From assembly GCA_963753345.1 (NCBI GenBank), contig CAVWBU010000028.1:8972-72971 (forward strand): DNA of 64,000 nucleotides, read 5' to 3'. The DNA comes from an uncultured Fibrobacterota bacterium (GTDB lineage Bacteria; Fibrobacterota; Chitinivibrionia; Chitinivibrionales; FEN-1185). The translations under genes and the position numbers were made by a program. The number at the start of each line of letters is the position of its first letter. Position 1 is the first letter of the stretch. The notes below the pieces were generated by a model, which was not told the DNA's origin, did no database searches, and worked only from the letters and a program-made list of their open reading frames with translations. Shown here piece by piece: positions 12,541 through 60,773 of the stretch.

Positions 12541-12728
12541 TCTCCGTGGGTGCCCCCACACAGGAGTCTGGTTCCGCAACTGCTTCCACTTGGGGGCCAC
12601 CCAGGAGGGGGAGCGCCCGCCCAACAGGAAGGGCGGAAAGCGCCGCAGGACACCGCAGGCCGAAGGCCGAGGAGGCCGGAGCGAGGGGGACGACCCTTGG
12701 AAGTACCCGACGGGGTAAACTTCCCCCA
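12541..12728 (+). repeat. Structured repeat module A, copy 1 (with two nested insertions)
   Basis: CTCCGTGGGTGCCCCCA..TGGGGGCCACCCAGGAG stem, GCAGGCCGAAGGCCGAGGA, terminal GGGG..TTCCCCC hairpin. Confidence 0.85.
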
Positions 12729-12768
12729 CAATTTCTTTTTATAATTCTTCAATCTCCTTTGTTCGCAT

Positions 12769-14007
12769 TTACCAAACACACGCAATCTTCCCGGTCTGAG
12801 TTTTTCCCGCATATTCCGCCAAGTACACGTAGAGTCCCGGCTTGACCCTCTTTCCCTGTTCGTCGATGTTGTTCCACACCGGATTCCTTCCTATCAAGTG
12901 ACGGACCGCACGGCCCTGCTCGTCGCACACCGTCACGGCGATCAGCCGATCTCGGTCCCCGCCCCTTGCCGCAAACGTTGTCCGGCCATGCGCGGCATTG
13001 GCGACAACCTGTATACTTTGGGGGGCTTCGGGAATACCAATTTCAACATCACGTACCCCGCTCTGCGTAGAACCCTGCCACACGCGCACGTAATCGATGT
13101 CGAACGTGTCAATGGCGCTCAGGTTCGGCAGCGTGCAGGCTGCCGCCCGGCACCAGTCGTTTTCCACCATCTGCTGGATCAGGATATAACCAGGGGTCCG
13201 GGCGATGTTCGAGTTGTTGGTGCCGGGCGTGGGGAATGTGCCGGCGGCTGTCCCGTCGAGGTAAAAGGTGAGGTGGTCGGCTTCCCAATCCACGCCGATG
13301 GTATGGAACGCGTTGGAAAAATCCCCGGCCGGTCCGGTGCCGTTGTTGCCGGTTCCGGTGTTGGGGGTCCAGCTCTTGTTGCGGGCCGAGTCGGTGGGCA
13401 GGCCGTCGAACCAGTTGTAATGCATCCACATGGTGCGCGGGTCGTTGCCCAGCACTTCCAGAATGTCAATTTCCCATTCGTAATTGTAATTCTTCTTGTC
13501 TGGGAGCATCCAGAACGCGCCGAAAAACCCTGAGACATTGACGATCTTCAGCCGGGCCTCAATGTACCCGTACAGGAACGAAAACTTGTACGGGGTGAGC
13601 GAGTTGGTGTTGGCGCGGGCGGAGATAAGCTCGCCCGACTTGTACGAATTCGCGAACGTGGTGATTCCGGGATTTGGCTGCGCCACAAGATGGCACACCC
13701 CGTTGCTCACCTGGATCTGCGACGGATAGTAATTCTCCCGCCCGTTGTTGAACGAGCCCACCCCGCCCCAGTCGGCATAGGGATTCCAGATTGACGTATC
13801 GTAGGCCGTGCCGCTAAAATCATCGTTGAGGATCAGCTTCCAGGAGCTCATTCCGGTCGGCAGGGGAACGGCGGCCGGCGGCAGCGGATCTGCTGCAAGC
13901 ACGCGCTCGGGCAAACCGGTGATGAAAAGCCCAAGCCAAAAAGAGCAGTAAACCGGCACCCATTGACCGCGTGATGCGGAAAGGATTCTTCCTGTCTGCA
14001 GCTTCAT
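12769..14007 (-). CDS. Glycoside hydrolase family 16 with a C-terminal FlgD/T9SS-like domain
   Basis: RBS GGAGG, signal peptide, WKLILNDDF, YGYIEAR, catalytic EIDILE, FHTIGVDW, FDIDYVRVWQ; C-terminal WNNIDEQGKRVKPGLY. Confidence 0.9.
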   Translation of the reverse strand: MKLQTGRILSASRGQWVPVYCSFWLGLFITGLPERVLAADPLPPAAVPLPTGMSSWKLILNDDFSGTAYDTSIWNPYADWGGVGSFNNGRENYYPSQIQVSNGVCHLVAQPNPGITTFANSYKSGELISARANTNSLTPYKFSFLYGYIEARLKIVNVSGFFGAFWMLPDKKNYNYEWEIDILEVLGNDPRTMWMHYNWFDGLPTDSARNKSWTPNTGTGNNGTGPAGDFSNAFHTIGVDWEADHLTFYLDGTAAGTFPTPGTNNSNIARTPGYILIQQMVENDWCRAAACTLPNLSAIDTFDIDYVRVWQGSTQSGVRDVEIGIPEAPQSIQVVANAAHGRTTFAARGGDRDRLIAVTVCDEQGRAVRHLIGRNPVWNNIDEQGKRVKPGLYVYLAEYAGKTQTGKIACVW

Positions 14008-14094
14008 TTTTCCTCCTTGTTCAAAGACCATTGCCCGGGCAATTCGCTATTTGCAGCGCCATACGTTCTTGCACAAATAACGTTTCTTTTCTAT

Positions 14095-15825
14095 CTACTT
14101 CCTGTTTCCGGCCGGAAGCGTTTCCAACGAGTCCGCATCCCGGGGATTCCTGCGGACCGTTGCCAAGGGAACATGCCTGTATGTTGCATATTCTTTTTGC
14201 GCTCCACGTGCTTCGCCGAGTCTGTGTACGGCCGGCGTAAACAAGGAATCCGCGGCAATGGCCCGGCCGAAACACTCTATTGCCAATGTTGTGTCGCCAA
14301 GCATTTCATAAGCATTGCCGCAGTTGAAATTCGCAAGGACATCGGTTGAGTCTTTGGCAAGCAATGCTTTGAACAAAGGAATGGCTTCCTTGGGCCTTCC
14401 CTGCTTGAGATAGATGAGTCCAAGGTTCAATCGAGGCATCCATTGATCCGGTCGCAGCGCAAGCGATGCGGCAAAACAACGAAACGCCTCGTGGTCGCTG
14501 TGGTGGGAAAGCAGGTAATTTCCTTTGATATTATAGGCAAAATAATTCGCCTTTGAAACGGCAAGTCCATGGTCGCCGAGGGTAACATCGTTTTGCCAAT
14601 AATCAACCTGTTTTCGCGTTTGATACGTGGCACAACAGAGCACAACAAGAGAACCGGTTACAACAATGACTTTGACGATGCTGCTGCGGGACGCAATATC
14701 GCGCAGAAGCCATGCGATAATGATGAAAAGCCCGATAAGGGGAACATAGGTATACCGGTCTGCCATTGCCTGGGATCCGACCGGGACAATGCCGATGACG
14801 GGCACCAACGTTCCAAGAAACCAGAGCCACCCCATAATTACGTAAGGCATTTTTTTGGCAACGGTGAGCGCAACGCCTGTCAACGCGATGAGGATTATGC
14901 AGGAAAACAACAGGTCCCACAACGACGGCATGACAACAGGAAAGGGATAAAAGAACGAAAGGTTTACAGGCCAGAACATTTTTCCGATGTAGCTCACATA
15001 AGAAATTAGGGAATTTGCAAGTCCCGACAAAAGGGACAATGAATCGGTTTTTCCAATTGCTTCTCCCCCGTGCTGTGCCAGGACGGTAATGACGCATGAA
15101 GCCGCTGCGAGACAAAAAAACGGTATCTTGTCGACAAGTAGGAATAACAGGTCTTTTTTACGGATGGCATTGCCGGGCGTCAGGTCAGGTTCGGCATGCA
15201 AAGCGTGCAGGCGAAGAGGCCAGAAATCAAGTAGCAGCAGCACAAAGGGCAGCGTTACGAGCATGGGCTTTGCCATGAGGCCAAAGGCAAACGCAATAAC
15301 CGCCCCAAAATAGCAGAGCCGCCTTCTGCGGATGGAAAATGATGAATAGAACAGAAGGGTGACCATCATGAAGAACGTGCTCAAAACATCTTTTCTTTCG
15401 GACACCCAGGCAACCGATTCGACGTGGAGAGGGTGAAGCCCGAAGAGCGCCGCGACAAGCGCGCTCCTCCATACGGCGCCCGTTGCGCCCCTGAGAAGCA
15501 AAAACAGAAGTAGCGTGTTGAGAACGTGAAATACCAGGCTGGTAAGATGGTGTCCCGCCGGTTTAAGCCCGTAGAGTTCACAGTCGAGCGTATGCGAAAA
15601 CCATGTGAGCGGGTGCCAGTTTGCGGCATAAAACGAGGTAAATGACCAGAGAATGTTTTTCTTACTAAATCCGGAGGTGATATGATAATTATTGGAGACG
15701 TACTGATAGTCATCGAAGGTGATAAAATCACATTTGTCAATCTTCCAATACGCAAACAACGTGGCTGCAACAAGCAGAAAAAGTATCAAATACAACGATT
15801 GTCGCGACGGTGTTGCGCTGTTCAT
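14095..15825 (-). CDS. TMTC-like membrane glycosyltransferase (GT-C fold) with C-terminal TPRs
   Basis: FDD, NWHPLTW, HPLHVESVAWVSERKDVLS, KPMLVTLP and ADRYTYVP motifs; many TM helices; TPR tail. Confidence 0.85.
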   Translation of the reverse strand: MNSATPSRQSLYLILFLLVAATLFAYWKIDKCDFITFDDYQYVSNNYHITSGFSKKNILWSFTSFYAANWHPLTWFSHTLDCELYGLKPAGHHLTSLVFHVLNTLLLFLLLRGATGAVWRSALVAALFGLHPLHVESVAWVSERKDVLSTFFMMVTLLFYSSFSIRRRRLCYFGAVIAFAFGLMAKPMLVTLPFVLLLLDFWPLRLHALHAEPDLTPGNAIRKKDLLFLLVDKIPFFCLAAASCVITVLAQHGGEAIGKTDSLSLLSGLANSLISYVSYIGKMFWPVNLSFFYPFPVVMPSLWDLLFSCIILIALTGVALTVAKKMPYVIMGWLWFLGTLVPVIGIVPVGSQAMADRYTYVPLIGLFIIIAWLLRDIASRSSIVKVIVVTGSLVVLCCATYQTRKQVDYWQNDVTLGDHGLAVSKANYFAYNIKGNYLLSHHSDHEAFRCFAASLALRPDQWMPRLNLGLIYLKQGRPKEAIPLFKALLAKDSTDVLANFNCGNAYEMLGDTTLAIECFGRAIAADSLFTPAVHRLGEARGAQKEYATYRHVPLATVRRNPRDADSLETLPAGNRK

Positions 15826-15889
15826 GGAATAGGGAAAGATCCTTTAATGGAAAAGCCTTTATCGACCAACGCGCACCCGCGTAACCGCA

Positions 15890-19707: not shown

Positions 19708-19843
19708 ACCACGGCCACAGGCCGTGGCTTTGATGAGGGGGTATAACCCCCGAAATCAAAGAAAAGCGCGTCGGCGCTTTTGCGTAACATTGTGCACCAC
19801 GACCCTTGGAAGTCCCTGACGAGGGACGCCCATAGGGCGTGGT
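19708..19843. repeat. REP-like palindrome doublet with a nested 27-bp mini-element
   Basis: CCACGGCC-aca-GGCCGTGG, and ACCACG[27 bp]CCC-ata-GGGCGTGGT. Confidence 0.65.
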
Positions 19844-21743: not shown

Positions 21744-22301
21744 ATGTCAAGCCATCGCACGGCATCCGTCATTGCGCTCTGGGCGGGCATTGTCGCGCTC
21801 ACGCTGGGCATCGGCTTCATCGATTACGTCACCGGCTACGAGTTCAATTTCTTTGTTTTCTATTTTCTTCCCATCAGCATGGCGGCATGGTTTCTCGGAA
21901 TAGTGCCTGCCGTGGCCATGTCGCTGGTTTCGGTCACCATCTGGTATCTTGCCGACTATTACACCGGCCACCGGTATTCAACCTACCTGTTTGCGATCTG
22001 GAACACGATAATACTTCTCGTGTCATTTCTTGCCATAGGCTGGACCATGGCGCGGTTGCGCGAACTGCTTCAAAGGGAACGGCAAGTCCGGCAGAAACTG
22101 GAGCAGACCATTTCGGAGGTGAAAGTGCTGGAAGGCATTCTCCCCATTTGCGCCAGCTGCAAAAAGATCAGAAACGACAAAGGAGAATGGCAGCAGATCG
22201 AACAATATATCAGACAGAAAACCAACGCCGAATTCACTCACGGCCTGTGCCCGCAATGCGGGCAGAAGCTCCTGCGCGATGCCGGTATCGGCGGCAACTG
22301 A
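21744..22301 (+). CDS. Membrane protein with a 4-TM sensor-like domain (DUF4118-like), coiled coil and C-terminal Cys/His zinc-binding-like motif
   Basis: Four hydrophobic helices, then LPICASCKKIR..W..IEQYI..FTHGLCPQC. Confidence 0.8.
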   Translation: MSSHRTASVIALWAGIVALTLGIGFIDYVTGYEFNFFVFYFLPISMAAWFLGIVPAVAMSLVSVTIWYLADYYTGHRYSTYLFAIWNTIILLVSFLAIGWTMARLRELLQRERQVRQKLEQTISEVKVLEGILPICASCKKIRNDKGEWQQIEQYIRQKTNAEFTHGLCPQCGQKLLRDAGIGGN

Positions 22302-22360
22302 CGGGAAGCTTGGTTTTTTGCAACGCGGGTTGTCCCGCATAATCCGAGGAGGCATGCTTT

Positions 22361-23380
22361 ATGACGCACATCAAATCGCTCTGTCGTGTTTCGGTCCTGT
22401 CCGCGGCGATGTTTTTGGCACTGGCCTGCGTCTGGCAATCAACGGCCGGCGCAACGGCGAACCGCCATCATGCTTCGCACGCGGTGCAGCCGCGCTCATT
22501 GGAAATGCAAGGCGCAAAGGATGCGAGCCAGCCCGGCCAGAAAACCATTGACCAGGATCTCGACACCCTTTTCGCAAGGACAAAAACCACGTTCGACAAA
22601 ATGGCAACTTCCGCGGTTCTAAAGTTCCCCAAGCCAAAGCCGGTGAACGCCCTTTTCTGGAAGACGCTCAAGGCCCACCAGCCATGGCATTCGCTGCTCC
22701 GGACCGACAAGAAGGGTGCGGTTGTCAATGAGGTGATCAGAATCGAGGGCGAGTCGAAGGAGAAGCGCTCGGTGGCCGGCGAGGTATGGTTCGCGCAGGT
22801 TTCAAAGACCATGAAAGAGCATTTGAGCATCGTCAAGAACGAGAAGACCGGCAGATACTACCTGATCTGGGCCGCGCCCATCGTTGCGAAGGTAAAGGGA
22901 TCGGAAACGTTCCAGGGCGCGGTGGCGGCGCAAATCGACCTGTGGGACTGTTTCGACCGGTATTCCGACAAATCAACGACGCCGTTCAAGATCCACATCC
23001 TGGACCGCGTGGTCCTATTCGAGCACCTGTGGAGGGACACCATCAAGTACGCCGAGAAGCACCTTATTGTTCCCGGAATCGACAAGATCACGGTGCGGTA
23101 TCCCAGGATGGAGAACGAGGCGGCCGCCGTGGGCGCTGCCGATTCCGTGGCGCTCGAGTATGCGCGGCTGGATTCGATACGGATCAAGGCTGCAGGCGAT
23201 TCGGCCGCCAAGGCGGCTTTGGTAAAAAAGGCCAGGTCGCATAGGGCCGCCATCATAACGATAGCGGCAATAATCGGGTTGCTGGTCCTCCTCGTGGTGG
23301 TGGTCCTGTACGCAAGAAGCCGCAGGCGGCCGGAAAAAACCGGCACGGATCAAGGCAGAGACCGTTTCGGCAATCTTTGA
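22361..23380 (+). CDS. Hypothetical exported protein with a Cache/PDC-like domain and C-terminal TM anchor
   Basis: RBS GAGGAGG, signal peptide, W(F)..TGRYYLIWAAPI..FQGAVAAQIDL Cache-like motif, C-terminal hydrophobic helix followed by a basic stretch. Confidence 0.6.
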   Translation: MTHIKSLCRVSVLSAAMFLALACVWQSTAGATANRHHASHAVQPRSLEMQGAKDASQPGQKTIDQDLDTLFARTKTTFDKMATSAVLKFPKPKPVNALFWKTLKAHQPWHSLLRTDKKGAVVNEVIRIEGESKEKRSVAGEVWFAQVSKTMKEHLSIVKNEKTGRYYLIWAAPIVAKVKGSETFQGAVAAQIDLWDCFDRYSDKSTTPFKIHILDRVVLFEHLWRDTIKYAEKHLIVPGIDKITVRYPRMENEAAAVGAADSVALEYARLDSIRIKAAGDSAAKAALVKKARSHRAAIITIAAIIGLLVLLVVVVLYARSRRRPEKTGTDQGRDRFGNL

Positions 23381-23452
23381 CCTTGGCTGAGAAGAAGACA
23401 AGATACGAGAAGAGTTGGGCGTTCCGCAGCGTTATAAGAGAATAATGGAGTT

Positions 23453-23846
23453 GGGCGTTCCCCTCGCGGGGCTCGGGTCGGCCGTCCTTACGGTCTCGGC
23501 CTTCGGCCTCGGGCTGCCTGCCACAAGGGCCTGCGGGCCGTGGTCAGGCAGCACCGCGCTCCAGCGCGGCCTCCAGTCCTGCCTAACGCGCGGCAGAAGA
23601 GATATATTCAGTCAAGTGGATTCTCTTACGCCAGACTGAATTCTCAAGGAGAAAACAACGGCTTCTCTTTGAACTTCTCAACTCCTAAACTCCTCAACTT
23701 TTCAACACTTTTTCTTTTCAACTGCTCTCCTTGGGTGCCCCCACACAGGTGCTTGACTCTTGCAACTGTCTCCACAAGGGGTGCACCCTGGAGGGGGTAG
23801 CGGAGGACCGCTGAAGGCGGGCCGGTGCGAGGGGGGGCCTTCCCCC
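23453..23846 (+). repeat. Composite structured repeat: module B (23453-23589) + spacer + module A (23733-23846)
   Basis: GGGCGTT...CCTAACGC closing stem with internal hairpins, then GGGTGCCCCC..GGGGTGCACCC and GGGGG..CCCCC. Confidence 0.85.
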
Positions 23847-23888
23847 GCCAGACATCTGTTTGTATTTGTATTTAGTATTTGTCAACCG

Positions 23889-26800
23889 TCAACTGTCAAC
23901 TTCTTCTACCCCCCCCCCCCCCCCGTCCAGCACTCCCCTCACCGCCTGCAAAAGGTCGCGCACGGCATACGGCTTGTGCAAAAAACGGAAGTTGTTCTCC
24001 TTGATAAAATCCCAATGCGCCTTTTCGTCAGTGTAGCCGCTCGTGATGAGCACCTTGAATTTCCCGCGTTTGAGCAGATCCTGCACCATCAGGATGCCGG
24101 ACCTGTCGGGGAGAACGACATCGCTGAACACCAGGTCGAACTTGCCGTTTTCCCTTTCGAACAGCTCCATCGCCTCTTTCGCGTTCGAAACCGCAAACAC
24201 GGAATATCCGTTTGTCAATAGCAATTCCTTCGCGATCGCGCGCACCTCGGCCTGGTCCTCAACGATCATGACCCGCTCGCCTTTTCCTTCCAGGGAAGCA
24301 GCGCCGGCCTTCTCTTTGCTTTGCTGTTCGGGACTCGCTGACGAAGCCGGAAAATAGGCGCTGAACGTGGTCCCGTGCCCGGGTTCGCTGTAAACGTCTA
24401 TCCAGCCCTTGTGCTGCTGGACAATGCCGAACACCACCGACAATCCGAGCCCTGTTCCCTTGCCTGCCGGCTTGGTGGTGAAAAACGGCTCGAAAATGTG
24501 CTGCTGCGTCAGTTCATCCATGCCGGTGCCGGTGTCCGACACCGAGATGCGGACAAAGCGTCCGGGGCGGGCCGTCTTGCTCGTTCGGCAATACTCTTCG
24601 TCAATGGTCACGTTCTCGGTCTTCATGAATATTTTTCCGCCTTCCGGCATTGCGTCCCTTGCGTTCACCGCCAGGTTCATAAGCATCTGCTCGATGTTCC
24701 CCTCGTCGCCGAGAATGGTCCAGACGCCCTTTTCCAGGCCGGTCTCAATCACAATGTCCTCACCGATAAGCCTGTCGAGCATTTTGAGCAGGCGGGTGAT
24801 GGCGGCGTTGACGTCCATGGGCATCGGCTCCATGTGCTGTTTCCTGCTGAAAAGAAGGAGCTGGCGCACCACGCCCGCTGCCTTGTCCGCCGCAACGCTC
24901 ACCTGTCTCAGATCCCTTTGCACCGGATCGGATTCGTCTATTTTCCCAATGGCAAGGGTCGTGTAGCCGGAAATGGCGCAGAGAAGATTGTTAAAGTCGT
25001 GCGCTACGCCGCCGGCCAATGTGCCCATGGCCTCCATTTTCTGGGCCTGGAGAAGCTGGATCTGTAGGTTTTCCCTTTCCTTTTCATGCTGTTTGCGCTC
25101 GGACACGTCGCGGAAAATCCCCAGCATATAGTCGCGGCCGTTCATTTGTACCCGTGCGGCCCTGATTTCCACCGGCGTCAATGCGCCGGATTTGGAAATG
25201 ATCTGGTCGTCGACCGTGATACCCGGATCGTCTGTCTTATGCTTAACAAAGGCCGCCGATTGACCGTTGAGAAGATTTTGGGCCGGATGAATAACCGACT
25301 GCATCTGCCCCACCAGTTCCGTTTTGTCCATGCCGACCATGCGGCACAATGCCTGGTTGCATTCCACTATTTTTCCCGTTTCGGAATCGGCAAGCGCAAT
25401 GCCGTCCTTGGCGTCGTCGAAGAGCGTGCGGTAACGCTCTTCGCTTTCTTGCAATGCCTTCTCCGATTGCTTGCGTTCGGTGATGTCATGTACATTTTCT
25501 ACAACCATGGTGACATTGTTATTATTGTCAAATATTGGATAAGCGCTTACTTCCTTGAACAGCTTGGTATATTCGTTGTAATATTCGACAACAACAGGTT
25601 TCCCCGAGTTAAAGACACCAAAGGGCTCGCATGGTTCACAGGGCGAGTCTCGATGAATGAATGCCTCAAAGCAATGAGAACCTATGGGGAATTCGGTACA
25701 GCCGGCATAGAGAGGAGATTTCCAATTGGACTTTAGAATTCTTAGATTTCTGTCAACGACAGCAATGAGATCCTCAGAGGAGCTAAATACACTCTCGAGT
25801 AACTTGTTAGTATTCTGCAGTTCCTCCTCGCTCTTTTTGCGTTCGGTGATGTCGCGCTCGAGCGAAACTGCAAAAGTCTTTGAACCGACTTGCATTTCCG
25901 TGGCCGAGCACTCGAAATCCCGGACCGTACCGTCCTTGCATCGGTGTTTTGTCTCGAATACTTTCCCTAGTCGTGAAAGGATATTTTGCCGCATCTCATT
26001 GATCGTTTGGGAACCATCGAACGCCACATTTATGAAAGAAACCGGCTGGCCTATCAGCTCGTCTCGCGCGTATCCGAGGAGCCTCAAGGCCGCGTTGTTC
26101 GCATCCCGGATCACGGGCATGCCTTTCGGCGCAATCTCCAGTTGAAGTATGATGTCCGCTGCCTGCTCGAAGAGGATTCGATACCTCGCCTCGCTCTGGC
26201 GCAATGCCTTTTCCGCGAGTTTGCGTTGTGACAACCATTCGGTGATATCGCGGATGTTGCACTGGATCACTTTCTTTCGGCCCACAACATAGACATTGCT
26301 CACGAACTCCACGTCGATGCGCCGCCCGTCGGCGGTTTCCAGGGGCAGATCTACGTAACGGATGTATTCCTTTCGCTGCAATTCCAGGAAATTTTCTTTG
26401 TTGGCAATTATGTCCTTGAAGAGCCCCAGGTCCCATATTGTTTTTCCCATGAACTGTTCATGTGAATAACCCAGCAGTTTAATGAGAAATGGATTTACGT
26501 CTACAACCATCCCCGTCTCGGAATCAAGGATCAGAATTCCATCTTTCGCCGATTCGAAGAGCCGACGGTACCGGGCTTCCGAAATGCTTAAAGCCTCAGT
26601 CGTCAGTTTGCGCTGGATTTCCGCCTCGGCAAGCTTTTTCCTGTTCTCTATTTCCTCGCACGCGTGCTTCACCTTGACGGGCAATATTTCGTGAAACTGA
26701 ATGGACTTGGCGACATATTCCACGGCCCCGAGCTTCATCATCTCAACGGCGATCATCTCGTCGCCGTGACCCGTGATGATCATAAACGGGATTTCGAGGC

Positions 26801-27041
26801 CGCGGCCGCGCACCTTCTCCACGAACTCCCTTGCCGTCATGTCGGGCAGGGAATAATCGAGCAGCAGCAGCACATTGTCGGTATTTGACAATGCCGACAC
26901 ACGTTCCAGCGCTGTGGCGCCCGTAAAGAACCCCTCGGATTTCATTCCTGCCCCGTCAAGCAATCTGCGGATTGACTTGTTGAGCAGCTCGTCGTCTTCG
27001 ACGACAAGAATGGTGGTGGCGGATTTTGTGTTTTTGTTCAT
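23889..27041 (-). CDS. Hybrid sensor histidine kinase (REC-PASx4-HisKA-HATPase-REC)
   Basis: N-terminal REC ([12 protein letters not shown]), repeated PAS/PAC (RDITERK), H-box [25 protein letters not shown]-terminal REC. Confidence 0.95.
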
Positions 27042-27569: not shown

Positions 27570-27700
27570 ACCTCACCCCGGCCTTCGGCCACCCCTCTCC
27601 CACAGGGAGAGGGGAATTCATGCTTGTTTTTCTTTCGCCCCTCTCCCCGGGGGCGACCCTTGGAAGTGCCCGAAGGGGCAAGAGGGGCCGGGGGTGAGGT
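27570..27700. repeat. CCTCACCCC..CCCTCTCCC/GGGAGAGGG-class palindromic repeat with a nested 27-bp mini-element
   Basis: ACCTCACCCCGGCC ... GGCCGGGGGTGAGGT outer arms and two CCCTCTCCC hairpins; CGACCCTTGGAAGTGCCCGAAGGGGCA sits inside the second. Confidence 0.75.
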
Positions 27701-35124: not shown

Positions 35125-35170
35125 CGTTTACTTCTATTTTCCACATCCTGCATTCTTCATTCAAAAATGT

Positions 35171-35300
35171 TTCTTGGTGCCCCCACAAGGGAGTTCCATT
35201 CTTGCTGCAGACTCCTCTTGGGGGCTACCCTCGAGGGGGTAGCGGAGGACGCCGCAGGCCTGAAGGCCGAGGAGGCCGCAGCGAGGGGGAGACCTCCCCC
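35171..35300 (+). repeat. Structured repeat module A, copy 3
   Basis: GGTGCCCCCA..GGAGT..ACTCC..TGGGGGCTACC; GCAGGCCTGAAGGCCGAGGA; GGGGGAGACCTCCCCC. Confidence 0.85.
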
Positions 35301-35341
35301 ACCAGACTATCTTTTTTTTAAATCTTCTTTTATAGTATTTG

Positions 35342-36844
35342 TTATTCGCATTCGGCAAGATAATAAACATGCCGTGGGTCAACGAAGTGGTCGAAGATCT
35401 CCTCGTTGTGGGAGATCATAAGCAGGGCGGCTCCCTTTTTTCGGCGGTCGTCAAGGATGGAAAGCACTTTCTTGACGCTCAGGAAGTCGAGTCCGTTGAG
35501 CGGTTCGTCGAGGATGAGGAGGTCGGGGTTGAGCGCGATGCTGCGCAGCAAATTGAGCCGCTGCTTTTGCCCGCCGCTCAGCATCGCGACCTTCTTGGCG
35601 AGAAACGCGTCGGTAACGGCTCCCTCGAACAGCTCGGCCATCACCGCTAAAAGCCTTTGAGGCGTCATCTTTTCCGGAAGCGGCAGGCCGTTAAACGTTT
35701 CCCGCACCGTGGCGGCAAGATCGAGCGATTCGTCGGCGTGCTGAAACACCATGCCCGCCCTCCTGCCCCAGACCTTTGTCTCCCACACTTTTTTGGGCGT
35801 GCGCGCGTCGAAGTTTGTGCCGCAGAGGTTCATCGAAAGGTCCTGCGCCGCGTACAGGCCCATAATCACCTTGGCAAGCGTCGTCTTGCCCACGCCGCTC
35901 GGGGCCTTTACATACGCCATTTCCCCCTTGTGAATGGCGAGATTCGCGGGCTGCCGGTGTCCGGCGTCGCGGAACAGGCACAGGTTGCGTCCGAACACCG
36001 AGAAGCGCGCGCCGAAATCAAGCACGGCCGCAGCCGCGTCCGCGCCCCCGGACGCAGGCGGAACCTCTTTGAGCCAGCTCAGGTAGTCCTGGGCGGAAAA
36101 ATCGACCACTTCCACGGCCGGCGGCGCGGCGCGGCGCAGCTCCTTGAGGTGAATGCGCCCGAGAAGCGGCCGGTACTTCGCGTACAGCTCGCTTATAATG
36201 GAATAATCGTGGGTGATCACCATCGCCGTAAAGGGACATTGCGCATATTTCTCAAAAAGCAATTCGAGGAACAGGTTGCGGTAGTTGTTGTCGAGGCTGC
36301 CGGTCGGTTCGTCGAACACGAAGAAACTTCGCGCGTTGGCGCCCTTCCCCGCGGCAAGCACGTTGATCTTCTTGAACGCCATGGCCAGCAGCGCGCGCTG
36401 CTTCTCCCCGCCGCTGGGACGGTACGGCTTTGGAAAAATGTCCAGCACGCGGCGGATCGCGCGCTCGTCGGCGTTCCGCCACAGCCTGCCCACGATCTCC
36501 CCTTCGTTCCTGCACAGCCGCAGGCTTCCCTCATTCAGCTGCTCGGAAATTTTCAAAAGGGAATTGAGGTGCGACGAAGGCTCCTGGAACACGAAGAAAC
36601 TGTCGTCGAGTATCTCGCGGGTCGCCGGATCTGCGCAATACGCCGCATACGGCCTGCCGTTCACCATAACGTCGAGCTCGTCCGGGTCGAGCAGGCCGTA
36701 CACGGCCTTGGCAACCATGGATTTCCCGATGCCCGATTCACCGAACAGAAACGTGATCTCGTTGAGCACAACGTCGTAGTTGTCCGTTGTCACAATGGTC
36801 CGCTCGCCGGAGCGGATGCTTACGGCATAGCGCTCGGCGCTCAT
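35342..36844 (-). CDS. ABC transporter ATP-binding protein with two nucleotide-binding domains (Dpp/Opp-like)
   Basis: GESGIGKS/PSGGEKQR/FDEPT and APSGVGKT/LSGGQKQR/LDEP; ATGA overlap with the permease. Confidence 0.9.
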   Translation of the reverse strand: MSAERYAVSIRSGERTIVTTDNYDVVLNEITFLFGESGIGKSMVAKAVYGLLDPDELDVMVNGRPYAAYCADPATREILDDSFFVFQEPSSHLNSLLKISEQLNEGSLRLCRNEGEIVGRLWRNADERAIRRVLDIFPKPYRPSGGEKQRALLAMAFKKINVLAAGKGANARSFFVFDEPTGSLDNNYRNLFLELLFEKYAQCPFTAMVITHDYSIISELYAKYRPLLGRIHLKELRRAAPPAVEVVDFSAQDYLSWLKEVPPASGGADAAAAVLDFGARFSVFGRNLCLFRDAGHRQPANLAIHKGEMAYVKAPSGVGKTTLAKVIMGLYAAQDLSMNLCGTNFDARTPKKVWETKVWGRRAGMVFQHADESLDLAATVRETFNGLPLPEKMTPQRLLAVMAELFEGAVTDAFLAKKVAMLSGGQKQRLNLLRSIALNPDLLILDEPLNGLDFLSVKKVLSILDDRRKKGAALLMISHNEEIFDHFVDPRHVYYLAECE

Positions 36845-37698
36845 AGGTGGTGCCTTTCCGCGTATCCGTTCGCGATATGGTAAATTGACATAAGCGAGAA
36901 GACGATCAGAAAGGAGACGGTGAGCCCCAGAAGGTGTCCGAAAAACAGGTTGTGGGCGTATCCCGGATGCGTGAGGGTGTACCCGATGGCGAGGATGTCC
37001 TGCTTGCTGTCTATTTTCGCAAGCAGGCTCCCCAGGCTCGCGGGCAGCGTCACCGCGTTCACGTCGGAGGACAGCCCCACCGAGATGATGAAGTCCACGC
37101 TGCACTGCAGGAATATCGCGGCGCCGAACACCGAGATCAGCTTGTTGAGAACATGGATGCGGCTGTTCTTCCACAGGATGTCGAAGTTGACGACCCGGCC
37201 CTCCGAAATCCCGCACACGCGCATCGCGTTGTAGAAATCGAGCTTCTGAAAGTGCGCGATTCGCTCCCGCATCAGGTCGACAAATTCGATGAACACGAAC
37301 AGGCTTATGCTCAGGGCAAGCAGCGAGAATATCACGATGGGGCTCCGCAACACCCCGGCCTCCACCAGCGCGCTCACCGCCACGTAGCCGAACAGAATGC
37401 CCACGACCTGAGGGACGGACCGGATGAGATTGAGCAGGAACGTGAGAAGCAGGTACGGCGTCCTGTTTCTCCATGTGTCAAGAAAGTGCAGTGCGAGCGT
37501 GACGCCCCACGCCAAAAGCAGCGTGAAGCCGACCGCCAGAAACGCGACGGCAAACGTGTTGAAGAATCCGGCCGTCACCTGCCGGAAGGCGGGCTTGTTT
37601 AAAAACAAAATGTCCCAAACACCAACGCATGACATACCGAGGATCCAAATTGCAACCCAACGAAGATCCTTCTTGCGCAAGCACGAGTAGAAATCCAT
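36841..37698 (-). CDS. ABC transporter permease (DppC-like)
   Basis: TM helices, EAA-like loop DFYNAMRVCGISEGRV, SLGSLL. Confidence 0.8.
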   Translation of the reverse strand: MDFYSCLRKKDLRWVAIWILGMSCVGVWDILFLNKPAFRQVTAGFFNTFAVAFLAVGFTLLLAWGVTLALHFLDTWRNRTPYLLLTFLLNLIRSVPQVVGILFGYVAVSALVEAGVLRSPIVIFSLLALSISLFVFIEFVDLMRERIAHFQKLDFYNAMRVCGISEGRVVNFDILWKNSRIHVLNKLISVFGAAIFLQCSVDFIISVGLSSDVNAVTLPASLGSLLAKIDSKQDILAIGYTLTHPGYAHNLFFGHLLGLTVSFLIVFSLMSIYHIANGYAERHHL

Positions 37699-37715: not shown

Positions 37716-37742
37716 GTTGACAGTTGGAAGTTGAGAGTTGAA
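37716..37742. repeat. Heptamer tandem repeat (AGTTGNN)n, one arm of the inverted pair around the four-helix-bundle gene
   Basis: GAGTTGACAGTTGGAAGTTGAGAGTTGAA, complementary to TTCAACATCCAACATCCAACTTTCAAC at 38172-38198. Confidence 0.7.
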
Positions 37743-37771: not shown

Positions 37772-38179
37772 CTATCGATCCAGCGGCCTTAAATTCTTGT
37801 CTTTAAGCGACGTTGCAAGGCCCTGGAGCATTTTTGATATTGTTTTCAAATCATCGCATAGCATTTCCATATTCTGCTTGTTAAGAATGCCAATACTGCC
37901 GGAATATTGCAATATATATACCTGTGTCCTTAGTTCAGCAGCAGATCCCTTCGCGATGAAAATAAACCTTCTGAAATCTGTGTTGCTGTTTCTCTCACTC
38001 CCCTCCGCAATATTTGAAGCAATCGAAACAGCCGCGCGAAACATTTGGTCCTTAGATCATAATCCTTACAATTCTTCAAGCAAGGAATGAAGATGAACAG
38101 CCAGCCTGCAGGCTTTCTTCCATACTTCAAGGTCTTCAAACGCGGCACTCAAGGTTTCAAGCTGCCTTTCCTTCAACAT
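37772..38179 (-). pseudogene. Four-helix-bundle protein (23S rRNA-IVP/Avd-like family), disrupted by compensating indels (pseudogene or sequencing error)
   Basis: FEDLEVWKKAC..KDQMFRAAVSIASNIAEGSER..FIFIAKGSAAELRTQ. Two in-frame stops near 38058-38070 disappear if a +1/-1 pair is corrected (LKNCKDYDL). Confidence 0.8.
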
Positions 38180-38203
38180 CCAACATCCAACTTTCAACAA
38201 TTT

Positions 38204-44123: not shown

Positions 44124-44306
44124 AATGTCCTCCCGATATTATTCTTCAAGATTGTTCTTCAAAAAGCGGTTTTGTAAAGGGGTCCGGAGTCAGATTGTTG
44201 TAAAATACATTCGCGGGGTGTTGTTTTTCAATTGCTTTCAAGTGCTTAAGAAGAGTTTGAATTCGGCGTTCCCATCGCCTTCGTTAAAAAAATAGAGCAA
44301 ATACTT

Positions 44307-44675
44307 GGGCGCCCCGCCGCTTCGCGGCGGCGGCCCTCCTTCCAGGCTCGGCCGTTCGGCCTCGTTGCCGGACCGCCCTATGCCTATCGGCCGGGTCGGC
44401 CGGCAATCCCGCTACGGCGGGACCATTTCAGTCCGGCCTGGCGCGCGGCAACAGAATTCTATTCAGTCAATGACTTCTTCCCGCGCCAATCGGCATTCGC
44501 AATAAACCGGTTAGGCACCTTGTTCGCATTTTCTACTTTTCTTTGTTTCAACTATTCTCCGTGGGTGCCGCCGCAGCAATGCATGGTCTTGCAGCCACTT
44601 TGCCAAGGCGGCTACCCAGGAGGGGGTGACGGAGGACCGTAGGGCCGCAGGCAGGGGGATACTTCCCCCCCCCCC
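44307..44675 (+). repeat. Composite structured repeat (module B 44307-44444 + module A 44557-44675)
   Basis: GGGCGCC...CCTGGCGC closing stem; module A has compensatory GCCGCC/GGCGGC. Confidence 0.85.
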
Positions 44676-44738
44676 ACACACACACAATCAATTCTTTTTG
44701 CAGAGTGCTTGATACTTGACTTGAAGCACAAACAACAA

Positions 44739-44765
44739 GCGCCCCGCTGGAAGACAGCGGAGCGC
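44739..44765 (-). terminator. Probable terminator hairpin after the 44799 gene
   Basis: GCGCCCCGCTG-gaaga-CAGCGGAGCGC, followed by TTGTTGTTTG on the minus strand. Confidence 0.55.
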
Positions 44766-44798
44766 CAAATTGCCAAAAGAGATTAACCAATGACCACT

Positions 44799-45989
44799 TT
44801 AGGGAGCAGGCCTATACGTGATATCGTCGAGCGCGTAGCTGGAACCGGCAGTGTATCCGGCTGCCGATGAAACAGGGGCCACGAACATCAGGTACTCCGT
44901 GATCGCGCTGAGATCGACCGTGGGAAAACTTGAAAGCGGAAGAGTGATCTCGTTCCAGGTGCCGTCGGCAGTATAGCCCAGCGTCGAGAGGTCGACAGCC
45001 GTGCCGGCGCCGCCGGTGGACGCGATAAACGCGCCGACACTCGGCGAGGTTCCGCGGATGTAGAAATGGATGCTTCCGCCGTAGAAACCGGACATGTCGA
45101 CCGAGCCGACAGCGGCGCTTACCACAAATCCCCATGTGGACCAGCCGACTGTTCCGCAGGTGACCAGCCAGCATTTTGTATTGCCTGTGTAGGGATTGAC
45201 CGTGCTTGCCCCGTCGAGCGCCGTCGACGTAAGGTGCAGCGACGTGTCGGCATTGGCGGCAGTGTAGTCCCACACCTGCACGGTTGTGTTCGCCCAATCG
45301 ATGCTCTTGGTGACCCGCTGCGAATATATCGCGGTTTCGGCCGACTTGGGGATCGCCGTAAGCACGCAGATCTGGCCGGAAAGCGTATACGAGGCAATGA
45401 ACTTCTTGAACGTCTTGTACCCGCCCTTCGTCGCGATGAGCGTGTCCGAAACATCCGCCGTCTTTGAAAGCGGCCGGCCGTTTATGTCCGGAACCAGCCT
45501 GAGTCCCGTCCCGGTAACGCGGACGCCGCTCAGCGACATTCTGCAAACGCTCGACCACGAGCCGATTCGAACCTTGACAAAATAGACTCCTGACGGGATT
45601 TCGGCGGCCGAGGGCGCGAACGAATAGACACCCCTTGCAAGCGTCCTGTCGAGCGCGCCGAGAACCAGGCGACCGTTTATGGAATACACGTCGATCCGGA
45701 CTGCCGAAGGTGACGCAACGGAAAACCGGATCGTGCTGCCGGCAACCGAGGCGGATACTGCCGCCGCATGCTCCTGCATACTCCTGACGGCCGTGGTCTG
45801 CGAAAGCGTGAATGAGCCGTCGCTCCCCGTGGTGGTCGAAATCCCCGCATACATCAGGCTCACTGTGGCGCCGGCAACCGGGTTGGCTGCGGCGTCGATT
45901 ACGCTCCCCGTGATGCTGATGTCCTGCGCACCCGCCTGCAAAGCAAGCGCCGCGACAAACGCGCACAGAACGGATCTTTTACGAATCAT
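44799..45989 (-). CDS. Secreted protein: carboxypeptidase-regulatory-like domain, internal T9SS-like domain, C-terminal carbohydrate-binding-like domain
   Basis: RBS AGGAGG, ITGSVIDAAANPVAGATV..TTGSDGSFTL, VRIDVYSINGRLV..PSGVYFVKV, DTLIATKGGY, WNEITLPLSSF..YALDDITY. Confidence 0.75.
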   Translation of the reverse strand: MIRKRSVLCAFVAALALQAGAQDISITGSVIDAAANPVAGATVSLMYAGISTTTGSDGSFTLSQTTAVRSMQEHAAAVSASVAGSTIRFSVASPSAVRIDVYSINGRLVLGALDRTLARGVYSFAPSAAEIPSGVYFVKVRIGSWSSVCRMSLSGVRVTGTGLRLVPDINGRPLSKTADVSDTLIATKGGYKTFKKFIASYTLSGQICVLTAIPKSAETAIYSQRVTKSIDWANTTVQVWDYTAANADTSLHLTSTALDGASTVNPYTGNTKCWLVTCGTVGWSTWGFVVSAAVGSVDMSGFYGGSIHFYIRGTSPSVGAFIASTGGAGTAVDLSTLGYTADGTWNEITLPLSSFPTVDLSAITEYLMFVAPVSSAAGYTAGSSYALDDITYRPAP

Positions 45990-46192
45990 ACAAACCTCCT
46001 GCATCGTGAAATGGTTTAAAAGGTACAGTCCCAGCGTTTTTTCAAGCGACAAATATAATAGAAAATGACGTTTTTCACAATGCAAAATTTACAATACGGG
46101 AAAATTTTACGGTCGGAATCGGAGTGAAGCGCTTTAATCAATGAGTTAGGGAGGCTGAACGGGAAAACGGCCGGGAAAATCTAAAAGGGTTC

Positions 46193-46219
46193 AAAAAAAA
46201 GGGGAGCTCGCGCTCCCCT
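46193..46219 (-). terminator. Rho-independent terminator
   Basis: GGGGAGC-tcgc-GCTCCCC with an 8-nt T-run on the minus strand. Confidence 0.85.
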
Positions 46220-46244
46220 CATAAGGATCAACCTATGGCCGGTC

Positions 46245-53189: not shown

Positions 53190-53218
53190 TCAACTTTCAA
53201 CCTTCAACTTTCAACTCT
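53190..53218. repeat. Heptamer tandem repeat (TTCAACT)n between convergent genes
   Basis: TCAACTTTCAACCTTCAACTTTCAACTC. Confidence 0.6.
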
Positions 53219-56934: not shown

Positions 56935-56953
56935 TTCTTGCGGCTACAATAGT

Positions 56954-56989: not shown

Positions 56990-57011
56990 GTTTCCACCTG
57001 CCGGTATCCGG

Positions 57012-57359: not shown

Positions 57360-57411
57360 CCATATTTCACTTCTGTCAATAATGATAAAACTGCGATGAT
57401 CCGCGTGCCCT

Positions 57412-57894
57412 TTACTCCTCCGCAGTTCCGCTTTCGTTGTTCCCAAACAAATCCTTGATGATCCGCCTCGCCTCGCCGGCACGCCGTTTCTCGACCTCTA
57501 TCTTAACCGTGCCGGTCACGGGGTTGAATCCTCCAAGAAGACCCGCTCCGAAAAGGCTCTGCAGTTCCTCGCCTTTCGCGTTATACGGAATGTGCGCTGC
57601 CTCCAATGCGCCTTTTATCAAGACAAGCTCGGGCAGGTGCGACGTCTCGTGCACGACCACCGCCTCCGCGTCGAGATATTCGGGCGTTCCCTCCCGTAAA
57701 TCATCCGGCGTCCTGTAGGCCACGAGCGGTTTCCTGCAGTCCGGGCACCTGGTGATGCCCGCGGGGTACGTCGCGCCGCACGAGGAGCAATGCAGGGGCA
57801 GGTTGTCAAATGGGACGAGCTTCACTCCGCAGTCCGGGCACACATCAATGCTTTCGCGAAATTCGGAGAGGCAGGAGGGGCAGAAGAGGGACAT
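57412..57894 (-). CDS. Double zinc-ribbon + DUF2007-like protein
   Basis: FCPSC..CPDC twice, then LIKGALEAAHIP..VKIEV. Confidence 0.8.
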   Translation of the reverse strand: MSLFCPSCLSEFRESIDVCPDCGVKLVPFDNLPLHCSSCGATYPAGITRCPDCRKPLVAYRTPDDLREGTPEYLDAEAVVVHETSHLPELVLIKGALEAAHIPYNAKGEELQSLFGAGLLGGFNPVTGTVKIEVEKRRAGEARRIIKDLFGNNESGTAEE

Positions 57895-57930
57895 AAGCTA
57901 GATCTTTTCCATCTTGTTTAGTAAAGAATT

Positions 57931-58355
57931 GGGCGTTACCCGGCTTGCGCGGGGTCGGTCTCCCTCCGGGCTCGGCCTATGGCCTCGGGCCATCTAATTG
58001 TAGAATGTAGAATTTAGATTGTAGAATTGAAATACAAACATCGGAACATTTTTTCAATCCACATTCATCAATCTAAAATCTACAATTAAGTGTCCAGGCT
58101 GCATCCCGCCTCAAGCGGGACCATTTTTCCAGTCGCCCCTAACGCTGGGCAGAAGATCCTTGCTATATCTTTTTGTTGCATTTTGCCAAGGCGGATGTAA
58201 TCTTTGTCATCTATTTTTTCGGAGCAACTGCTCTCCACGGGTGCCCCCCAACCGAAGCTTGATTCTTGCAACTACCCTCACTTGGGGTGCACCCAGGAGT
58301 GGGGAGTGCCGAGGACGGTAAAACCGGCCGAGGCCGGGGGAGATACCTCTCCCCC
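57931..58355 (+). repeat. Composite structured repeat (module B 57931-58145 with a nested 94-bp element + module A 58233-58355)
   Basis: GGGCGTT...CCTAACGC; GGGTGCCCCC..GGGGTGCACCCAGGAG; GGGGGAGA..TCTCCCCC. Confidence 0.85.
57995..58088. mobile_element. 94-bp AT-rich MITE-like element with terminal inverted repeats
   Basis: Perfect 10-bp TIR TAATTGTAGA/TCTACAATTA extended by heptamer units; occupies the central arm of module B. Confidence 0.6.
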
Positions 58356-58370
58356 AGCAACGCCTCAAGA

Positions 58371-60319
58371 TTATCGTACAACGGCCACCGTTCCAACTAT
58401 TTTCCGGTCTGCAACAACGGTACTAAATAAATACATTCCCGCGCCGACAGATCTACCTTTTTCATCCGTCAAGTCCCAGTTCTGCCCCCGGCGCAACGAA
58501 CGGACAATCCTTCCGCTTCGATCAAAAATATGTATCTGCCCGCATCCTCCAAATTCGACCGGCATTCCGCTCGAAAAAAACGAGGTGCGCACCATGCCAT
58601 GGGTTCCGCTGCCGGCAACAGCCCGCACGCCTCCCGCGCCCACAACGCCCTCATACGCGCCGATGTCGAACGCAGGCCCTTGCGGCCGCGGAACGCCGTC
58701 GAAGTCCACGCTCACCACCGCGCTCACGTCCCTTCCCGCGTTGAGGGCGGCTGAGCCGTTTGTCAAATGCATGTTCCCGGCCGCGGTGTCGGCGAACTTC
58801 GGGTCTGCATTGACCGACGTCGCATCCCAGGAAGGGAGGCCGCCCTTGCCGAACCACAGGTTGTTGCCGGCCTGCACCTTGCTCAAATCGGCGTCCGACC
58901 ATCCGGCGACATACGGCTCGCCCGTGGAACAGATGATGTTGTTGTTGAAATGCAGCGCGTAGCGGCTGTTGTCGGTAATGCACACGTTGCCGCTGGCACC
59001 CTGGCCGCTCGCGGTCTTGCCCCAGCCGCAGCCGTACACCGTGTTGTTGTAAAAGTAAATTACGGTCGAAGTGTCTTCGTGGCCCGCGTCGATCTGGACG
59101 CCGTAATGCGTTGACGCGCCGCTTTCGTTCGGGTCCGGGTCCGGCCCCAGTCCCGCCTTTACGATGATGTTGTTGTAGAACCAGTTCTCCCCCACCGTGT
59201 AGTAGCCGATGAGCATGCCGTCGCTCACCTGGTTGATGATGAAATTGTCGTGCACCCGGTGGCCGGTCATGAATGCGGTTGAGTCCTGCTCGCTGTAGAT
59301 GTTGATGGCACGTATGGCGTTGTTGTCGTGGAAATAGTTGAAAGCGATCTCGCGGTTGCGCTGCGTGGGATACCGCGCTCCCGTTCCCGAACGAGGGCTT
59401 GACACATACAACGGATGGTACAGTTTGCTGCACCCCAGCCTGCCCGCCCTGGTGATTTCGTTGCCGAGGATGTACACGCTGTCGCCGTCGGCCTCCACGG
59501 TGCCTTCGGCCGCGCTCGCCGTGGGCGCGGTTATGTAGTTGCCCACCAGCCTCGAACCGGTGCTCACCGGTATGCTTATTTCACCGGAAGTGATGTGGAA
59601 TTTAGCCACGTTCCAATGGTTCGTGTATCCATACCCGGACTCCCAGTGGCCAAAGCCATAGGTGAGTGAACTGTCGCCCACAAGCACCCGCGCGCCCGGA
59701 TACGCGATTATCGACAGGGGCTGGGCGTCGGAGCCGTGACGGTCGAGGTTGACCGCGCCGCCGTAGCTGTCCTCGGTGGTCGCGGAAACGCCGTCGCACA
59801 CGTAAACAATGCCCCCGGCCGCCATGCCGCTCACGGCCTTGGGCATGGTCTGCCACGGTTTTGCCCAGGAGCCGTCACCCGATGCGTCGCTGCCGGTCGT
59901 CTTTACAAAGTACATTGAGGCCAGCCGTACGGCAAACGCCAGCACGTTCGACGTCTCCCCGTTCACGGTGACCGTGATGCCCGCGCCGCTGTCGGGCGTC
60001 GAACCGCTCACCTGGAATTCGATCATCTGCATGACGTGGCGCGAAAACAGGTCTGCCGGCGCCGCGGCGTTTTTCCACGAATACACCCGCGCCTCAGTGC
60101 CGTTGACAAACATCTTGGATGTCGCCTGGCTTGGACCAAGGTTCTTTCCCCAGACGGTCACGATCGCGCCATCCACGCCCGCAGCCTGCCCGAGCGATAC
60201 GTCGCTGTTTCCAGTCTTCGGCCCGCTTGCGAGATCGGAGAAGCAGAGGATGGGAGCGGAGAAAGAAAGAAAGGAGATAAAAGAATGATAGGAAGGGGCT
60301 TGCATGATTGATAAAACAT
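58371..60319 (-). CDS. Secreted beta-helix protein (IPT-like, DUF1565-like, choice-of-anchor-Q-like, FlgD/T9SS-like C-terminus); probable -1 frameshift in the signal peptide (~60278)
   Basis: RBS AAGGAG before ATG 60319; GSDASGDGSWAKPWQT; FYNNT repeats; DFDGVPRPQGPAFDIGAYE; WDLTDEKGRSVGAGMY. Confidence 0.8.
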
Positions 60320-60400
60320 GAGAGGCTCCTTTCGGGATTCTGTCGAACAATGATCATGGGCGTTTCCCTCGCCTACGTCAAGAAATCTAAATAAAAATAT

Positions 60401-60773
60401 GGGCGCCCCTCCGCTTCACGGCGGCGGCCCTCCTTCCAGACTGCGGCCAAGGGCATCGTTGCTGCCTGCCACGCGGGCCCTTGGGCCGTGGTCGGCGGCA
60501 ATGCGCTCCAGCGCACCTTCCAGTCCTGCCTGGCGCGCGGCAATGGAATTCTTATTCAGTCAGATTATCTCTTTCCGCGCCAAGCGGCATCCGAATAAAT
60601 CAGTCAGAGCTTCCTGTTTGCATTTTCAACTCTTCAACTCTATATCTCGGTGCCCCCGCAACCGAAGTTTCTTCATTGCAAATCAACTTCCTTGGGGGCT
60701 ACCCCGAGGGGGCAGCGGAGGACACCGCAGGCCGAAGGCCGAGGAGAACGGAGCGAGGGGGAAACTTCCCCCC
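60401..60773 (+). repeat. Composite structured repeat (module B 60401-60536 + module A 60646-60773)
   Basis: GGGCGCC...CCTGGCGC; CTCGGTGCCCCC..GAAGTT..AACTTC..GGGGGCTACCCCGAG; GGGGGAAACTTCCCCC. Confidence 0.85.

Follow-up and report, generated by a model that had tools for sequence, protein, structure and literature searches.

A stretch of 64,000 nucleotides (nt) from an uncultured Fibrobacterota bacterium of the order Chitinivibrionales (GenBank assembly GCA_963753345.1, contig CAVWBU010000028.1, positions 8,972 to 72,971), henceforth the window, carries six copies of a long hairpin element, here called module A, each lying just beyond the stop codon of a different gene. What kind of element is this, and what could it do at the ends of genes? 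A preliminary description, made from the letters of the window, proposed a structure-selected RNA or single-stranded DNA (ssDNA) element that could not be assigned to a known family, either a module of 3' untranslated regions (3'-UTRs) or a non-autonomous element moved by an HUH-type enzyme. Here we report that module A is one module of an old, structured, interspersed and intergenic repeat family found across the order, that its base pairing is well supported, and that in its behavior it is closest to the REP/BIME repeats of E. coli.

Module A in the window and in the genome

A covariance model (R1) was built from 60 genome copies of module A and used to scan both strands of the window. It returned six matches, all on the plus strand, and none on the minus strand. 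Together with sequence inspection and alignment, this bears out every one of the six locations proposed earlier, and the proposal that all copies occupy a single strand is correct within the window. The motifs listed as common to the copies are present as well: a MAFFT alignment of the six has 39 invariant columns, and a repeat finder also clusters them (families D1, D2, D5, D6 and D8).

The genome (4.52 Mb in 55 contigs, 55.9% G+C, assembly 94% complete) was searched with an nhmmer profile made from the six window copies. Of 307 matches in total, 285 have an E-value below 1e-5 (136 on the plus and 149 on the minus strand) and 272 one below 1e-10, so that an element first described as having six copies has 285. 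Full-length matches number 267, of which 260 are distinct. Module A is 120-190 nt long (125-230 nt as extracted, including 16 flanking nt).

Comparison of the window with the genome by BLAST revealed that the repeated DNA extends beyond module A, to a block of about 410-420 nt at three sites (23436-23857, 44265-44672 and 60359-60779). This composite is made up of module B, then a linker of CAAC repeats at 7-nt spacing, then module A. A refined profile puts the genome copies of module B, another GC-rich multi-helix repeat, at 429, more than those of A. Module B is found within 250 nt 5' of module A, on the same strand, at 206 of the 285 A copies; a further 223 B copies stand without A, and B sometimes occurs in inverted pairs. 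CAAC tracts were counted genome-wide by their spacing (105 at 7 nt, 131 at 8 nt and 4 at 6 nt). In this genus, module A has multiplied to about 285 copies per genome, usually joined to B in a unit of about 420 nt that fills intergenic gaps.

Secondary structure of module A

The fold of module A was set by hand from folds of subfamily representatives and then counted on two alignments; RNAalifold, run on MAFFT or hidden Markov model alignments, returned 14 pairs for A and little for B. On the strand read in the preliminary description, module A opens with a long irregular hairpin that comprises two invariant G:C helices, a variable but paired interior and an apex that is nearly palindromic. Next come a conserved junction rich in G, a second hairpin, whose sequence is free, and another conserved junction, and the module closes with a 6-bp terminal hairpin (GGGGGA-N4-TCCCCC) and a tail that is A-rich at first and then T-rich.

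In the MAFFT alignment of 60 copies, 85.7% of the cells pair, against 80.9 ± 0.4 after shuffling, a value reached in 0 of 500 shuffles. Cells in which both sides of a pair have changed number 116, compared with 50.9 ± 7.6 in shuffled alignments (0 of 500) and at most 61 in controls with slid pairings. The alignment of 150 copies to the model, which itself leans towards the structure, gives 318 such cells versus 136.1 ± 12.3 (0 of 500), with slid controls at 145 or below. Among these 150 copies, compensatory replacement of C-G by G-C in the third helix is seen in 33, and replacement of G-C by A-U in 14 at the terminal hairpin and in 25 at the base of the second hairpin. The compensatory changes pointed out between window copies are likewise real, the exchange of CCCCC/GGGGG for CCGCC/GGCGG being present in 61 of the 260 distinct genome copies.

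Folds computed for each subfamily agree with the suggestion that the interior arms vary in sequence yet remain paired. When one fixed register is imposed, only 58% of interior cells pair, because the subfamilies differ in register, and it is the per-subfamily folds that show the interior pairing. The outermost helix of the preliminary description, CTCC/GGAG, is doubtful: its pyrimidine strand toggles between C and T even opposite A, leaving C-A combinations in 59 and 78 of the 260 copies. Apart from this helix, base pairing of module A is well supported, and the label "structure-selected" is backed both by covariation on the two alignments and by the uneven conservation within subfamilies given below.

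Position and orientation relative to genes

Gene neighbors were taken from a rough, purpose-made gene caller. Among 264 A copies with a called neighbor, 179 have their 3' end facing the stop of an opposite-strand gene, at a median gap of 20 nt. Within this group, 137 copies lie no more than 40 nt from the stop, which leaves no room for another terminator. Only 16 of the 285 copies overlap a gene call. Between co-directional genes, A is antisense to both in 109 cases and sense in 33 (binomial p = 1e-10). Convergent gene pairs enclose 68 copies and divergent pairs 49; set against all gaps of at least 100 nt (a limit applied to the gaps in the denominator, the A copies being unfiltered by gap length), A is present in 68 of the 249 convergent gaps (27%), in 142 of the 1157 tandem gaps (12%) and in 49 of the 348 divergent gaps (14%).

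In the window, a minus-strand gene has its stop 15-124 nt away from each copy, in line with the preliminary description. The further claim that the element is always found 3' of a gene and in fixed orientation survives as a bias but not as a rule, as 85 of the 264 copies face a gene start. Along the contigs, adjacent A copies share a strand in 134 cases and differ in 108. The six-of-six orientation in the window arises because the six adjacent genes are all on the minus strand. A replication-strand bias, which had also been suggested, is not seen either: relative to local GC skew, A copies split 161:124, equal to the split of the genes themselves (1799:1372). This distribution follows from the antisense relation of A to genes, which show the same strand bias.

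The other parts of the composite have positional preferences of their own. CAAC tracts without A face a stop in 57 cases and a start in 17, at a median gap of 12 nt, and are oriented such that the strand of the gene reads GTTG repeats a median of 12 nt past its stop. Where B stands without A, its 5' end (an A/G-rich run, then TGGGCG) tends to abut the stop of a same-strand gene (median distance 3.5 nt). At each of its two outer ends, read outward, the composite has a T-rich run that follows the last helix at a distance of about 8-10 nt. After the terminal hairpin of A, T is enriched to 50-61%, starting at +10 and spanning +10 to +18 in both context classes.

Conservation, turnover and distribution

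The 199 composites, extracted with their flanks, gave 3465 pairs that align over at least 250 nt, with a median identity of 72.1% and a 99th percentile of 82.1%. All composite pairs at 94% identity or more continue into their flanks and therefore reflect duplication of larger segments or redundant contigs. Among pairs whose similarity stops at the limits of the element, the best reaches 90.6% over 288 nt. The copies of module A are thus old, with no burst of recent multiplication, yet they have been kept. Conservation along the element is markedly uneven. In the five largest subfamilies (187 copies), per-site deviation amounts to 1.0% in the stems of the terminal hairpin, 1.7% in the third helix and 3.5% in the second helix, against 28% in the terminal loop, 33% in the region of the second hairpin and 41% in the tail. 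This unevenness, together with the small number of weak or partial matches, indicates that individual copies are constrained or that damaged ones are quickly removed, with the caveat that the copies were found by similarity.

Orthologous sites in related genomes were compared for five of the six window sites, the site at 35.2 kb being left out. The closest species (G001), informative at three sites, carries A at two of them (12.5 and 44.5 kb) but not at 58.2 kb, where only a CAAC tract is present, abutting the end of the gene; two other contigs of G001 break off within the repeat or shortly before it. Three further genomes (G002, G004 and G005) have no A at the orthologous sites examined, in 1, 1 and 4 informative comparisons, respectively, or 6 in all. 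Copy 5, at 58.2 kb, is accordingly missing from its orthologous site in both G001 and G005. These three genomes do carry the element elsewhere, as 39-40 of the 40 candidates scored per genome match R1. Positions of module A are therefore shared only with the closest species.

Two genes of the window are absent together with their flanking composites: gene 44799-46085 and its composite are both missing in G005, and gene 58371-60350 and its composite in G004, as seen when the regions 44124-46244 and 57895-60821 were compared with these genomes. Both are accessory genes, and the repeats therefore mark variable spots of the genome. The repeats also break assemblies, as illustrated by the G001 contigs ending inside them, and create spurious open reading frames (ORFs), so a model of them is of help in annotating this group.

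A DNA search detected the composite in four of the five other species examined in the genus but not in two other genera of the family. Within the order, R1 has matches in 32 of the 81 genomes, from 14 of 33 genera. One member of the same genus, G003, gave no R1 or DNA match in an assembly that is 99% complete. In other families, shorter hairpins replace the long one, while the sequence of the 3' core, consisting of junction, free hairpin, junction and terminal hairpin, is retained. Eleven matches from other families, whose flanks and ORFs were read by eye, comprise five that face a stop, five that face a start and one that is unclear.

Search for a mobilizing enzyme

In the 94%-complete assembly, neither a TnpB domain nor a reverse transcriptase was found. 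A genome search with the Pfam profile Y1_Tnp was blank as well, but a later protein search detected RAYT-like (IS200-like Y1) ORFs at five places in this genome and relatives in 56 of the 81 genomes, so the blank reflects a search miss. No A copy lies within 2.5 kb of a RAYT-like ORF at the four places examined. Across the 81 genomes, which are kin and not independent, RAYT-like ORFs are present in 21 of 32 genomes with A versus 35 of 49 without. The link to an HUH-type enzyme put forward in the preliminary description thus finds no backing, either in proximity at these four places or in co-occurrence across the 81 genomes.

Individual RAYT-like loci have features of their own. On contig C27, a RAYT-like ORF of 287 amino acids (259567-260427; locus L057, 10-873, minus strand) has a middle part made of inserted GC hairpins. 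It scores weakly against Y1_Tnp (18.3 bits; cut-off 23), and the hairpin that interrupts it is of a different, classical-looking type that is absent from the window. The same ORF adjoins a GIY-YIG gene sitting in a tandem hairpin array. Contig C32 has an uninterrupted RAYT-like frame of 266 amino acids (21912-22607), and a copy of B lies 135 nt downstream of it. On contig C35 (about 162342-162761), a two-piece RAYT-like gene is bracketed by inverted stretches resembling the first ~17 nt of B, a hint that one RAYT lineage may have the 5' end of B as its cognate repeat. Small GIY-YIG genes were also considered as partners of A and rejected: they are flanked by other hairpin types, and the one that lies near a copy of B (at about 340 nt) is without A.

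Comparison with known repeat families

In agreement with the earlier failure to assign the element to a known family, Rfam 15 gave no match in the window at gathering score. Around copy 6 the best score was 15.1 bits against a threshold of 50, which is chance-level, and the elements of five loci from other genera had no Rfam match either. In genome G072, the Acido-Lenti-1 RNA motif has a match below threshold (locus L071, 1833-1878, plus strand; 27.6 bits, gathering score 37) that is close to an A-like element but outside it. A limited literature search found no published description of these repeats.

The REP/BIME repeats of enterobacteria and pseudomonads share many properties with the present family: high copy number, strictly intergenic location, GC-rich folded sequence, mosaics of modules and linkers, enrichment between convergent genes, closeness to stops and lineage-specific subfamilies. 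As a high-copy, intergenic, modular mosaic near gene ends, module A falls into the same behavioral class. It differs from REPs in that it is a multi-helix element, with at least three helices and conserved junctions, instead of a palindrome of 20-40 nt, and in that its core is conserved across the families of an order. The tetranucleotide GTAG is present in the conserved junction of most A copies (variants GTGC, GTGA, GCAG and GGAG), but does not form the base of a simple palindrome there. Membership in the REP/REPIN-RAYT family was rejected, as A is not a short palindrome with a conserved 5' GTAG and flanks no RAYT-like gene at the four places examined in this genome.

RIME and Sm-repeats of rhizobia, BOX of pneumococci, ERIC and Correia/NEMIS elements are modular, intergenic and foldable, measure 100-400 nt and are often co-transcribed with their neighbors. 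Module A is likened to them by description, and no sequence relation is expected. Elements of the Correia type and other miniature inverted-repeat transposable elements (MITEs) have terminal inverted repeats and target duplications, neither of which was seen for the composite. On inspection, its ends (an A/G-rich run with TGGGCG on one side; CCCCC, ACCAAAA and a T-run on the other) have no inverted-repeat relation and no recurrent direct repeat, and the composite was therefore rejected as a MITE; one pair of filled and empty sites has a possible 6-nt repeat that is not general. An origin from IS200/IS605 elements, such as PATEs or carriers of omega-RNA, was set aside in view of the missing TnpB domain and the gene-like split relative to GC skew. 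Intrinsic terminators resemble the composite in combining a GC hairpin with a downstream T-rich run at gene ends, a feature of both composite ends. Module A differs from them in being sequence-conserved and multi-helix, and its T-run starts 8-10 nt past the stem. A simple intrinsic terminator requires the T-run at 0-2 nt, and this assignment was rejected.

Possible function

Our favored, if tentative, reading is that module A acts in cis on the flanking transcripts at gene ends; it is what we infer from position and conservation, and transcription, strand and role are all part of that inference. With the element only 10-40 nt past stop codons, transcripts of the neighboring gene would have to run into it. 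Once folded, it would act in cis as a stable 3'-end structure that could stabilize the mRNA, terminate transcription or insulate neighboring genes, especially convergent ones, in the manner of E. coli REP/BIME. Over evolutionary time, the element also spreads or is lost. The 3'-UTR module of the preliminary description is compatible with the data.

Several observations weigh against such a role. Among them are the 85 start-facing copies, at a median gap of 96 nt, and the 49 copies between divergent genes. A terminator scan covering 43.9-62 kb called 24 sites, none of them at the ends of the three A copies there, and the T-run is set apart from the terminal helix. At 44.7 kb the gene has a terminator of its own that precedes A, copy 4 lying beyond it. 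The orthologous copy of G001 at 44.5 kb has diverged at roughly the rate of third codon positions in the flanking genes (hairpin 81% and B 66% identical, third positions 75-92%), a comparison that rests on one fully aligned orthologous copy. The direction of folding is a further difficulty. The strand read in the preliminary description, antisense to the adjacent gene, has the lower minimum free energy in 186 of 260 copies and its complement in 72 (mean difference 3.3 kcal/mol). On the same strand, G-U outnumber A-C combinations by 630:175 over the 23 hand-set pairs and by 491:247 in the model alignment. That the better-folding strand should be the antisense one is hard to square with a 3'-UTR role. 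The G-U excess rests on a few high-frequency positions, however, and since rare variants are near even (about 13 versus 16), the folding strand is leaning to the one read, without being settled.

The turnover of positions invites a different explanation, namely that module A is a purely selfish, non-autonomous mobile element, copied or moved via its folded single strand by some enzyme that would recognize the conserved helices and junctions, and devoid of any host role. We consider this possible but rather unlikely. It would account for A being present at two of three informative sites in G001 and at none of the orthologous sites examined in G002, G004 and G005, whose genomes hold many copies, and for the lack of any match in G003 of the same genus. 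Subfamilies that differ by compensatory changes, the small module nested in copy 1 and the high-frequency G-U variants on one strand are also in keeping with it. Against these stand the absence of near-identical copies at different loci, of terminal inverted repeats and a consistent target duplication on inspection, of a linked transposase in the searches of this genome and of a replication-strand bias. Moreover, such strongly uneven conservation of inserted copies would be unexpected of neutral relics.

That same unevenness suggests maintenance by selection. In a more specific form of cis action, the conserved core would be an RNA or ssDNA signal for a dedicated protein of the order, serving as genome punctuation at hundreds of gene boundaries. 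Though unlikely on present evidence, this would account for the retention of helices in old copies and for a core that has outlasted divergence at the level of families. If it were true, the element could be, for example, a factor-dependent terminator, a 3'-end processing site or an antisense-insulation site. Should the copies be under selection, about 8% of the gene boundaries in an uncultured polymer-degrading lineage would make use of a single large folded module. This would offer a system for studying how structured repeats join gene expression, and the module would be a candidate partner in a new RNA-protein or DNA-protein recognition pair.

Two other proposals seem improbable to us. One is that the copies are independent small RNAs, transcribed from the strand read in the direction of the neighboring gene's 3' end and ending at the terminal hairpin and T-run, that act as antisense or decoy regulators. 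The better folding of that strand, the T-rich run at +10 to +18 after the GC hairpin in both context classes and the AGGAGG-like, GGA-rich stretches of the conserved junction speak for it. No conserved sigma-70-like promoter was seen by eye or by consensus scan inside the composite or before B, however; 285 near-redundant small RNA genes would be unprecedented, and the T-run does not adjoin the stem. The other, which we rate no higher, takes the element as a DNA-level site, a cruciform or protein-binding palindrome involved in nucleoid organization, gyrase- or IHF-type binding or site-specific recombination. E. coli REP/BIME elements bind gyrase and IHF. The terminal hairpin forms a palindrome of 16 bp, its arms invariant and its 4-nt center free, and the long hairpin is a near-palindrome centered on TTGCAA. 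Against this proposal, the compensatory changes in the terminal hairpin and third helix (14 and 33 of 150 copies) point to pairing more than to sequence read-out, and G-U pairs are tolerated on one strand.

Integron attC sites marking gene cassettes share with A a structure-conserved, sequence-variable hairpin just past a stop codon whose folded strand is antisense to the gene; CAAC motifs adjoin the hairpin, and gene and element are missing together at the two loci described above. This identity can nevertheless be dismissed almost entirely, and attC was rejected as a class. There are no R boxes and no GTTRRRY partner box at the other end, and the copies are dispersed on both strands beside large housekeeping-type genes, with no co-oriented arrays; an integrase was not searched for. 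The 85 copies that face gene starts do not fit attC sites either.

Features of the window

The coordinates of the module A copies, of module B and of associated features are given in Table 1. Of the gene products named in the preliminary description, GH16, the hybrid kinase (with PAS, HATPase and receiver domains), the ABC ATPase and the ClpP-like protease agree with Pfam; the genes labeled "CBM" and "beta-helix" have only sub-threshold Pfam matches (CarboxypepD_reg and DUF5123).

Table 1. Module A copies and associated features of the window
Feature	Position	Strand	Remarks
Module A copy 1	12536..12728	+	R1 85.2 bits; 40 nt past stop of GH16 gene 12769-14031(-)
Module A copy 2	23721..23847	+	R1 116.9 bits; 3' part of B-tract-A composite; ends 41 nt from stop of hybrid kinase gene 23889-27041(-)
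Module A copy 3	35163..35301	+	R1 113.1 bits; no B adjoining; 40 nt from stop of ABC ATPase gene 35342-37474(-)
Module A copy 4	44551..44670	+	R1 117.6 bits; CCGCC/GGCGG variant; 3' part of composite
Module A copy 5	58227..58354	+	R1 96.9 bits; 16 nt from stop of gene 58371-60350(-)
Module A copy 6	60636..60773	+	R1 94.9 bits; 3' part of composite; 48 nt from stop of ClpP-like protease gene 60822-61889(-)
Module B joined to A copy 2	23435..23663	+	E 6e-54
Module B joined to A copy 4	44286..44515	+	E 5.4e-55
Module B joined to A copy 6	60380..60612	+	E 7.3e-44
Partial module B (first third), upstream of A copy 5	57917..57991	+	E 2.7e-14
Degenerate CAAC-heptamer tract joining B to A	23665..23725	+	
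CAAC 7-nt tract	23883..23900	+	Across stop codon (23889-23891) and 3' end of kinase gene
Small ~33-nt repeat (family D12)	12686..12718	+	Nested in terminal hairpin loop of A copy 1
Terminator-like hairpin and T-run, canonical	44738..44766	-	Between stop of gene 44799-46085 and A copy 4

Solitary CAAC tracts with 7-nt spacing lie near gene ends at 38174-38198 and 53191-53215 on the plus strand and at 37716-37740 on the minus strand, in addition to the one at 23883-23900 (plus strand). The small D12 repeat recurs at 19795-19827 and 27649-27681 and could be another mobile hairpin, of small size.

A run of 16 C at 23909-23924 falls in the 3' end of the hybrid kinase ORF, where the coding strand reads poly-G 18-35 nt before the stop, and a C-run followed by (CA)6 is located at 44665-44687, directly after A copy 4. 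Both tracts could be slippage-prone or assembly artifacts. Between 25074 and 29614, inside the two large kinase genes, families D3 and D4 consist of repeats of 30-36 nt at a spacing of about 366-381 nt. These repeats are coding, agree with a series of PAS domains and are separate from module A.

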